This document shows, one piece after another, positions 43,715-43,927 of a DNA stretch of 64,000 nt (position 1 is the stretch's first letter; every line of letters starts with the position of its first letter). A program made the translations under genes and the position numbers. The stretch spans positions 448,001 through 512,000 of the forward strand of contig CAWFAK010000008.1 in NCBI GenBank assembly GCA_963813715.1. The letters run 5' to 3'. The notes under the pieces were generated by a model. The model was given only the letters and a program-made list of their open reading frames with translations. It made no database searches and was not told where the DNA came from. The DNA is from an uncultured Planctomycetaceae bacterium (GTDB taxonomy: Bacteria; Planctomycetota; Planctomycetia; Planctomycetales; Planctomycetaceae).

Positions 43715-43825
43715 TTGTGAGCAAGGGCGAATCCGCTAGAATGGCAGATGTCTGGGCTGCACTCTGGCGGAAACGCCGGTTTGTGGTTCACGCCCCGACG
43801 TTGCTCTAACAACGCCGGGGTTTTC
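43715..43825 (+). ncRNA. Putative cis-antisense sRNA to transposase leader, with its promoter
   Basis: TTGTGA-N16-TAGAAT. GAAA-tetraloop hairpin (CUGGCG/CGCCGG). Terminal hairpin with CUCUAA loop followed by UUUU. Confidence 0.45.
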
Positions 43826-43835
43826 ATAGAAAACG

Positions 43836-43927
43836 CGGAAGGCGTGGGTTCCGACCCCACCGGCTCTAACCGGCCCCTTCGGCAGCTTATAAGGCTGCTG
43901 CGCCGAGCCAAACGCGGGACGCCTTCC
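43836..43927 (-). tRNA. tRNA-like cloverleaf (8/4 allo-tRNA-like, anticodon UAU, long V-arm, G73, degenerate T-loop, no encoded CCA)
   Basis: GGAAGGCG/CGCCUUCC acceptor stem, GCGUU-UGGCUC-GGCGC D-arm, GCAGC-CUUAUAA-GCUGC anticodon arm, CCGGU-UAGA-GCCGG V-arm and UGGG-GUCGGAA-CCCA T-arm. Confidence 0.65.

Follow-up and report, generated by a model that had tools for sequence, protein, structure and literature searches.

Insertion sequences are kept quiet by a few known means, namely frameshifting, repressors and antisense RNAs (IS10, IS30, IS200). How may a transposase be held in check, when its leader and a tRNA-like gene lying just ahead of it expose the same loop? The question is raised by an IS1-family element found within a 64,000-nucleotide stretch from an uncultured Planctomycetaceae bacterium (GenBank assembly GCA_963813715.1, contig CAWFAK010000008.1, positions 448,001 to 512,000). 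The whole stretch is called the window below, and positions are those of its forward strand. The transposase gene lies on the minus strand, preceded by a tRNA-like cloverleaf and by a leader rich in hairpins. An earlier, sequence-only reading had noticed that the word GCTCTAAC caps a hairpin in both, and had proposed that a small RNA, made from a promoter directed against the transposase, might pair with either loop, the tRNA mimic serving as a decoy for this antisense repressor. Comparison with related elements points to a portable transposase-control cassette, composed of the tRNA mimic, in most cases a ribbon-helix-helix (RHH) gene and a promoter, a leader of four hairpins and a counter-transcript of ~72-76 nt, and acting by the mechanism described below; we regard this account as fairly probable. 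Since all functional statements made here rest on the comparison of sequences, function is what we infer from it.

Distribution and organization of the cassette

Matches to the leader or to the cloverleaf were found in 39 of the 398 genomes of the family, and in 21 of its 92 genera. A strict pattern describing the cloverleaf, searched for in 185,579 species genomes, was found at 64 places; all the corresponding records but one carry a Planctomycetota-type label, the exception being labelled Chloroflexota. Downstream of 54 of the 78 distinct copies of the cloverleaf, and on the same strand, lies a conserved leader of ~130 nt. Parsing was possible for 51 of these leaders, the three dropped being those in which the profile match did not reach hairpin B.

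Two forms of the cassette can be distinguished. In the long form (46 of the 51 parsed leaders) additional elements are found between cloverleaf and leader: a small divergent open reading frame (ORF), a strong sigma-70-like promoter for the transposase and, often, a small 5'-terminal hairpin, called B'. The small ORF of a paralog from the same genome encodes a ribbon-helix-helix protein of the CopG family (RHH_1, 25.1 bits, cutoff 20.5), and ORFs of this size were seen by eye at the same place in other long forms. In the short form the leader directly follows the cloverleaf. Five of the 51 leaders, including that of the window, are of this kind, and the later-found L098 brings the short forms to six (window, L002 (= L096), L004, L013, L027 and L098). 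The window copy is thus devoid of both the RHH ORF and the strong promoter. When short forms were sought by a pattern scan in metagenomes, three places were found, corresponding to the element of L002, to L097 and to the new L098.

The cassette is also found ahead of an IS1595-family transposase (L005) and of IS4-like DDE_Tnp_1 transposases (L007, L019), and appears to move between transposon families. Transposases of these other families are fronted by the leader, together with a cloverleaf, in L005, L007, L019, L084 and L086. In L006 and L030 the leader is followed by the gene of a SWIM-like protein of 404 amino acids, with an RHH-sized ORF and no cloverleaf. In the short form L013, the hairpin after the cloverleaf has no preceding A-run and is followed by TTTTT on the transposase strand; it resembles a terminator acting in the sense direction, not an antisense one.

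A predicted antisense RNA in the transposase leader

Read on the transposase strand, the leader is composed of an A-run, hairpin B, with a GC-rich stem and a 6-nt apical loop, and hairpins S, C and D, the last of which lies at the start codon (Table 1). A promoter of sequence TTGTGA-N16-TAGAAT had been recognized on the opposite strand, overlapping a palindrome, and both were confirmed. The palindrome (GCCCTTG-TGAG-CAAGGGC, 43711-43728) is contained within a longer inverted repeat (43705-43717 / 43722-43734), and the promoter site is also listed by a promoter scan, which found 3 sites against 0.8 expected. The palindrome had been described as standing just before the transposase start; it is present, and homology places that start at a GTG (43703-43701) instead of a TTG (43724). 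A hairpin occurs at the place of D in relatives too, with other sequences.

The RNA started at this promoter had been expected to be about 75 nt long, with a GAAA loop followed by a terminator with a CUCUAA loop, and the predicted fold agrees with this. The plus-strand RNA 43749-43826 is predicted to fold as two hairpins, with an energy of -39.5 kcal/mol and 61% of the ensemble (z = -5.2; none of 200 shuffles was as stable). The corresponding signals are kept in relatives. A -10 box of the type TAnnnT is present in 51 of 54 leaders, most often as TAGAAT (37/54), followed by TACAAT (5), TAGACT (3), TATGAT (3) and others; positions 1, 2 and 6 of the hexamer are kept in 53, 53 and 52 of the 54, respectively, and positions 3-5 vary. 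On the transposase strand of 47 of 51 leaders, hairpin B is immediately preceded by a run of at least three A, which corresponds, on the antisense strand, to the T-run that follows the hairpin. The antisense RNAs predicted for 53 relatives are 51-80 nt long, the median being 72 nt. Promoter and hairpin/T-run terminator are both located inside the leader, on the opposite strand, and are both kept among relatives, as in a cis-antisense RNA gene.

The apical word of hairpin B, on the transposase strand, is CNNNAA in 30 of 51 leaders, TTNNNG, which is the reverse-complement class, in 17, and of another type in 4. When the window is compared with L098, the loop is found inverted within identical stems. 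Such flips of orientation are neutral only if the loops of both sense and antisense RNA matter. Judged from these conserved signals, the leader is best read as containing a conserved cis-antisense RNA gene of ~72-76 nt, and we consider this reading highly likely.

Some of the observations weigh against it. A conserved -35 box was not found, this region being weak and starting with TT in only 18 of 53 relatives. Hairpin C contains the -10 box in its 3' arm; the two arms of C change together in relatives (by eye), and conservation of the box could in part serve the sense RNA through this hairpin. Sequences from RNA libraries speak neither for nor against an antisense transcript. They were found in two soil libraries, with a 0.05 share of the sampled words in either case, and only as contigs of relatives. 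Compared with 43300-44300, one contig of 198 nt, differing at 7 of 192 nt, spans 43792-43983, with hairpin B, the cloverleaf and sequence upstream of it, another of 155 nt spans 43939-44058, and the remainder is uncovered; contigs of this kind show neither strand nor ends nor level, and DNA may be their source.

The lack of a conserved -35 box and the co-variation of hairpin C would be explained if no antisense RNA were made at all, TAGAAT and hairpin B being kept for the sake of the sense leader, either for its structure or as sites for the transposase, the RHH or another protein, with the loop words as protein-binding sites; the direct repeats that lie 32-34 bp apart beside a promoter do resemble operators. 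Yet near-invariance at positions 1, 2 and 6 of the hexamer, with variation at the three between, is the pattern of a -10 box and not that of a stem, and the A-run is on the wrong side for a sense terminator. The loop words, moreover, flip orientation in unchanged stems, as between window and L098, and are always at hairpin tips, and the window copy has no RHH gene. We hold this explanation to be very improbable, and retain the antisense RNA gene as the preferred reading of the leader. With RNAalifold no common structure was obtained for 41 leaders aligned by MAFFT, the hairpins being misaligned.

The tRNA-like cloverleaf

A consensus fold of the cloverleaf was derived from an alignment of 27 copies. 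Its acceptor has 9 bp (columns 5-13 paired to 101-109, with possibly one more pair at -1/73) and its T stem 3 bp; the D stem has 5 bp and a loop of 4-6 nt, the anticodon stem has only 4 firm pairs, and the variable arm (V-arm) is long. An extra helix of 3 bp closes the D and anticodon arms. The loop of the anticodon arm has an invariant core UUAU(A/C), which gives the anticodon UAU, and the base 3' of the acceptor is G (the invariant G96 of the first sequence in the alignment). Paired cells amount to 93.7%, and compensatory changes are seen in 18 of 29 pairs, including 7 of the 9 acceptor pairs and all 5 of the variable arm. None of 500 shuffles matched any of five fold measures, and slid controls were only 43-54% paired. 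G-U pairs are common on the transposase strand (24 of 27 copies at one D-stem pair, for example) and would turn into A.C mismatches if the opposite strand were read, so that it is the transposase strand that carries the structure.

The proposal that the cloverleaf is a tRNA mimic is thus strengthened by strong covariation; on the evidence of the aligned copies it is a real structured tRNA mimic, of the allo-tRNA(UAU) type and of 9/3 geometry. In the window copy, the minimum-energy fold of the single sequence lacks the hairpin of the variable arm, which the family consensus supports instead. ARAGORN lists no gene in the window, a search of the window against Rfam was likewise empty, and this cloverleaf gave no Rfam match at E values up to 1; its T loop reads GUCGGAA, and the copy therefore bears neither of the marks of a functional tRNA that were considered, i.e. 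recognition by tRNA finders and a canonical T loop. Some relatives do carry canonical T loops. L015 passes the Rfam tRNA model with 41.9 bits (gathering score 29), the cloverleaf of L027 is named tRNA-Ile(tat) by ARAGORN, and matches to the Rfam tRNA-Sec model were obtained for L027 (34.4 bits), L023 (29.2) and L026 (25.0), all below the gathering score of 47.

A structured stretch upstream of the cloverleaf (Table 1) may belong to its transcript; the 155-nt soil contig mentioned above, which comes from a relative, overlays it at ~93% identity. A further tRNA or irregular tRNA gene immediately precedes the allo-tRNA-like gene in L002 (1662-1739) and in L013 (1616-1689). ARAGORN assigns a four-base anticodon, 'tgca', to the former and describes the latter as tRNA-Ala(agc); these extra genes are reminiscent of the irregular-tRNA polycistrons of Mukai et al.

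Twin loops in leader and cloverleaf

The presence of GCTCTAAC at 43803-43810 and again at 43863-43870 was verified on the plus strand, as was the position of both copies at the tip of a hairpin. The first is the loop, CTCTAA, of hairpin B (43793-43820), a stem of 11 positions with one A.C mismatch; the second caps the V-arm of the cloverleaf (43859-43874). Taken alone, the repeat means little: a repeated 8-mer is found in 37% of random 158-nt stretches of the window, and the exact word occurs 3 times in the window, which is about the level expected by chance over its whole length. Because repeated 8-mers are not rare, the significance of the twin must come from structure and from relatives.

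For each of the 51 leaders, the apical word of hairpin B, 6 or 7 nt long, was sought on the same strand in the 110 nt upstream, and was counted as a hairpin-tip twin when capped on at least 4 flanking pairs. The word recurs in 10 leaders, and in 8 of these it is at the tip of a hairpin. The same words, paired with the upstream regions of other elements, gave 6 hairpin-tip twins in 2,412 combinations, which makes an enrichment of ~60-fold, and letter-shuffled words gave 0.2 twins on average, with a maximum of 2, over 500 rounds. Reverse-complement twins were found in none of the 51 leaders.

The eight twins represent six words, TTAGAG, TTGGTG, CAGCAA, CGCCAA (twice), CGGCAA and TTGGCG (twice), and their stems mostly differ. 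Six are in long forms, where the second loop belongs to hairpin B', which is predicted to lie at the 5' end of the mRNA, with ~15 nt separating it from B. In the window and in L002 the twin is the V-arm of the tRNA mimic, the word of L002 being TTGGTG in both places. The constant, same-sense orientation fits one complementary partner for both loops, and the terminator loop of the antisense RNA would be the obvious candidate. The idea that the antisense RNA could pair with either loop therefore gains support from the excess of twins over exchanged pairs and from their never being reverse complements, as far as sequences can tell.

The leaders are kin, and the binomial P value overstates their independence and is no true probability. 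This speaks against giving the twin too much weight, as does its absence from 43 of the 51 leaders and from 4 of the 6 short forms. Among the latter is L098, the closest relative found, which has identical B stems, with CGAGAG as the loop of the V-arm and CGCTAA as that of B. In about 20 long forms hairpin B' is present and its loop is unrelated (by eye). Co-variation of the two loops, on which the proposal had been staked, is thus seen in L002 and in the six long forms with a twin in the 5' hairpin, and in most homologs the loops vary independently. As a constant feature the twin does not stand, being present in only two short forms; as compared across relatives, it is a recurring but optional part of the control region.

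Two roles, or none, can be considered for it. The antisense gene might be real and the twin of the window without function, having arisen by neutral coincidence or because sequence was copied locally. The ease with which 8-mers repeat in the window agrees with this, as do the unrelated loops that L098 carries on the same stems and the 14 nt common to both copies in L014, which resemble a recent duplication. An enrichment of ~60-fold at hairpin tips, obtained with six words on mostly different stems in a constant orientation, is hard to reconcile with such an origin, and we judge it unlikely.

According to the sequence-only reading, the mimic could act as a decoy, the loop of its V-arm titrating the antisense RNA away from the transposase leader and relieving repression. 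Over 8 nt the loop of the antisense terminator is indeed complementary to that of the V-arm, and the different word shared by the same two places in L002 and the lack of reverse-complement twins are in line with a decoy. Twins in the V-arm, however, are limited to 2 of 51 leaders, i.e. 2 of the 6 short forms, and the six others are on the same mRNA as B, at a distance that better fits a site for docking or avidity. Because the long-form twin sits on the same molecule as its target, we rate the decoy as improbable. That the twin is an extra docking loop for the antisense RNA is the role we favour, and on present sequence comparisons we place it just short of probable.

Two other pairings were tried and rejected. 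Intramolecular kissing of the twin loops would need complementary loops, and these are identical, with no reverse-complement twin in any leader. Pairing of the loop word with the D loop of the mimic (UUGG) fits L014 and does not fit L023 (by eye).

Proposed mechanism

In the mechanism that we propose for the cassette, the antisense RNA would pair with the transposase leader and lower transposase synthesis, as in the countertranscript control of plasmids. First contact would probably be loop-loop, at hairpin B, whose 6-nt loop is complementary to that of the antisense RNA by construction. Some elements have, 5' of B and in the same RNA, another hairpin with the same loop word, which would provide an optional extra docking site for the same antisense loop. 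In the window copy, transcription of the transposase probably reads through from the tRNA mimic, since no minus-strand promoter was listed by the promoter scan between cloverleaf and hairpin B; with read-through, a single precursor RNA would contain both hairpin B and the loop of the V-arm.

The antisense RNA would cover hairpins B and S and the 5' arm of C. Two results weigh against a simple scheme for repression by this pairing. The predicted RNA ends ~46 nt before the start codon, and would therefore be unable to block initiation directly. In the window copy, hairpin D is free to form once the target is covered, and the start region becomes less accessible by prediction, going from 0.40 to 0.20; over 40 leaders, covering the target made the start less accessible in 15, more accessible in 5 and left it unchanged in 20, so that the switch is inconsistent. 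A riboswitch-like rule, by which the covered target would free D to hide the start, was accordingly rejected: it works in the window copy and is not general over the 40 leaders. Cleavage or decay triggered by the duplex is an equally possible route to repression.

AUA codons in cassette-bearing transposases

The transposases that carry the cassette contain rare AUA codons, which match the anticodon of the mimic. In the window transposase 4 of 18 isoleucine codons are ATA, compared to 0 of 46 and 0 of 13 in the two flanking host genes and to a genome background of 4.1% (1,388 long ORFs). From the 54 leaders, 45 downstream ORFs were extracted, the other nine having no ORF of at least 150 amino acids. 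ATA is concentrated in a few alignment columns, located between a VLIKQY-like motif and the catalytic HVERNN motif, where it accounts for 19/20, 11/11, 10/13 and 17/31 isoleucine codons; twenty other isoleucine-rich columns contain 0 or 1 ATA.

This stretch was parsed in 34 IS1-type ORFs; the other 11 include five of other families and six truncated or missed, one of which, L004, has 3 ATA in the stretch (by eye). At least one ATA is present there in all 34 genes, for a total of 77 of 168 isoleucine codons, against 10 of 396 elsewhere in the same genes. As controls, 16 IS1-type transposases were used. Fifteen are from other Planctomycetota families and have neither the cloverleaf pattern nor the leader within 800 nt upstream; the sixteenth, L016, has a leader and only 278 nt of upstream sequence, with no cloverleaf therein. 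Only 2 of the 16 have such an ATA, which makes up 3 of 51 isoleucine codons within the stretch, compared to 7 of 142 outside it. Cassette-bearing and control transposases also differ in clade, and these figures represent a co-occurrence and no proof. Other transposase families with the cassette offer independent support for a putative AUA link, ATA being kept at one site in 4 of 4 IS4-like cassette-bearing transposases.

A normal-sized tRNA-Ile with anticodon UAU was found by ARAGORN outside the window, on contig C8 of the same genome (418,596-418,667), so that the host may read AUA without the mimic. Codons and antisense RNA could be combined in a two-key lock, in which the element's own allo-tRNA(UAU) would be required for reading, or for tuning a pause at, the AUA cluster before the catalytic glutamate, and the ~76-nt antisense RNA would dock on the leader and, in copies like that of the window, also on the V-arm, shutting the message and its private decoder together; we consider this an improbable scheme.

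The host element and its surroundings

Typical IS1 elements have terminal inverted repeats of the GGTnnTG type and a target duplication of ~9 bp. The element of the window (Table 1) is bordered by the 9-bp direct repeat CGGTCCGGA, at 42732-42740 and 45663-45671. Its imperfect terminal inverted repeats begin with GGTAATGGGG (42741, plus strand) and GGTAGTGGGG (45662, minus strand) and share 15 of their first 20 bases, the end sequences being GGTAATG and GGTAGTG. Relatives keep the sequence 3' of the transposase stop codon as far as the GGTAATG-type end, whose partner is at 45662 on the opposite strand. The transposase matches Pfam DDE_Tnp_IS1 with 38.8 bits (cutoff 24.1) and NCBIfam transpos_IS1 with 59.8 bits, which is under the cutoff of 100 of the latter. 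A DDE transposase, the ends and the 9-bp duplication together assign the element to the IS1 family. For the three passenger ORFs (44211..45613) no Pfam family was found.

Table 1. Coordinates of the features of the IS1-family element and of its control region. Positions refer to the window; strand - is that of the transposase.
Feature	Position	Strand	Remarks
IS1-family insertion element	42741..45662	-	2,922 bp; ends kept in relatives, target duplication read from sequence, Pfam/NCBIfam matches
Transposase gene	42783..43703	-	306 amino acids; GTG start by homology; ATA codons at amino acids 169, 190, 195, 201
Hairpin D	43705..43734	-	ends one base before start codon; overlaps antisense -35; forms in leader fold
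Antisense promoter TTGTGA-N16-TAGAAT	43715..43742	+	-35 43715-43720, -10 43737-43742
Hairpin C	43738-43765	-	3' arm contains -10 box
Predicted cis-antisense RNA	43749..43824	+	~76 nt; GAAA-loop hairpin, then CUCUAA-loop terminator hairpin and UUUU; ends predicted
Hairpin S	43764-43779	-	tetraloop (GAAA on + strand); alternative pairing to base of C
Hairpin B	43793-43820	both	loop UUAGAG on transposase strand, CUCUAA antisense; T-run 43821-43824
Allo-tRNA(UAU)-like cloverleaf	43836..43927	-	9-bp acceptor, 3-bp T stem, G73, anticodon loop CUUAUAA (43893-43887)
Long variable arm (V-arm) of cloverleaf	43859-43874	-	hairpin of 4-5 bp; loop is second GCTCTAAC copy, 43863-43870
Structured stretch upstream of cloverleaf	43939..44058	-	hairpin 43953-43992; z = -2.8
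Passenger ORFs	44211-44930, 44998-45261, 45326-45613	+	first, 239 amino acids; latter two, small MSDEPKKR... proteins

The element is inserted into one copy of a ~200-bp repeat, tandem copies of which are found at 42400-42740 and 45663-45720 of the window. The repeat has more than 40 diverged matches (75-94% identity) on at least 6 contigs of the genome, and an Rfam search of this repeat family gave no match. In the same genome, contig C15 (107,200-115,500, locus L031) contains three diverged IS1-family paralogs, head to tail, and in one of them the transposase is frameshifted. An allo-tRNA(UAU)-like gene, an RHH ORF and a leader are present in every one of the three, and small MSDEPKKR... ORFs, resembling those of the window element, lie in between. 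As to other tRNA genes of this genome, ARAGORN identified a dense one-strand array of 32 on contig C7 (914,718-919,431), which could be a phage- or island-borne tRNA cluster, and a 'tRNA-Stop (tta)' on contig C8 (182,792-182,863).

Comparison with known systems

In IS10 a cis-encoded antisense RNA, RNA-OUT, is likewise found opposite the 5' untranslated region (UTR) of the transposase; we know of no antisense-controlled transposase in which twin target loops or a tRNA mimic occur. The art200 RNA of IS200 (PMC4513863, as far as the available part of that paper goes) shares with the predicted RNA a cis-encoded origin opposite the transposase 5' UTR, and a leader structured near the start. The cassette differs from it in being associated with other families (IS1, IS1595, IS4-like) and in a predicted RNA that does not overlap the start codon.

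Closer in composition is plasmid pMV158, where, according to the available sections of PMC4485353, CopG and a 48-nt countertranscript, RNAII, jointly control repB, RNAII being complementary to a stretch just upstream of the repB initiation signals. Both systems have a CopG-family RHH gene and a short countertranscript, which in pMV158 uses a single 3' hairpin as terminator and recognition element, as would the one predicted here; in both, the RNA is complementary to sequence just upstream of the initiation region and leaves the start codon uncovered. In the cassette, by contrast, the target is a transposase and not a replication initiator, the RHH gene is divergent and not co-transcribed, the RNA is longer (~72 nt, two hairpins), and a tRNA mimic is part of the unit. 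Dual control of the pMV158 type, as those sections describe it, would be available to the long-form paralogs and not to the window copy, which has no RHH ORF.

A 6-nt apical loop on a stable stem as likely first contact is shared with CopA/CopT of R1 and with RNA I/II of ColE1, as these are presented in the same sections of PMC4485353. The commonest word in the loop of hairpin B is TTGGCG/CGCCAA, found in 12 of 51 leaders. We take it to be also the loop word of CopT/CopA. Recognition loops of kissing-loop antisense systems follow a U-turn (YUNR) motif rule, with which UUAG in the window and UUGG, UUGA or CUGA in other leaders agree; UUUCAG and the complement of CGGCAA do not fit. The rule is mentioned in the available part of PMC4485353.

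The cloverleaf was compared with the allo-tRNAs described by Mukai et al. 2017, on the basis of the available part of that paper (PMC5389517) and of a review (PMC7609411). In the former, mixed matches of this sort to tRNA and tRNA-Sec models are both the route of discovery and the definition of allo-tRNAs; allo-tRNA(UAU) is the most abundant group, UAU is among the predominant 8/4 anticodons, the host taxa are Clostridia, Proteobacteria and Acidobacteria, and a link to transposable elements and to toxin-antitoxin-like genes was suspected. The mimic has the 12-bp acceptor branch (8/4 or 9/3) that membership calls for, here split 9/3, as well as the long variable arm, G73 and the anticodon UAU. 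The D stem, with its small loop, the sub-threshold tRNA-Sec matches in relatives, and a possible extra helix that would make a five-stem junction may be further points of likeness. Unlike those of the paper, the copies described here are in Planctomycetota and are 9/3, against 8/4 for UAU. They also form a fixed module of a cassette, together with RHH gene, antisense RNA and leader, before transposases of three Pfam families. Antisense RNA, leader and the link to AUA codons are not named in the part of PMC5389517 considered.

In the literature searched for allo-tRNAs together with transposons, only PMC5389517 and one review were found. A search for work tying insertion-sequence transposases to tRNA-like genes and rare codons gave nothing relevant. 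A special tRNA matched to rare codons, UUA, that are confined to particular genes is the bldA tRNA of Streptomyces. In the present case tRNA-like gene and codons travel together on a mobile element, and decoding by the mimic is putative.

Viewed against these systems, an orphan class, allo-tRNA(UAU), acquires a defined genetic context, and with it two partners open to testing, namely the antisense RNA and the cluster of AUA codons. Should the twin loops matter, the target would offer an antisense RNA the same docking loop twice, once within a tRNA-like fold. Antisense control of transposases, control by CopG and a countertranscript, and allo-tRNAs are all known singly. What would be new is their combination into one portable, plasmid-like cassette, joined to a non-canonical tRNA mimic and common to transposases of three unrelated Pfam families in Planctomycetota, with recurring same-sense twin loops and a possible cross-talk between the antisense RNA and the private tRNA mimic.

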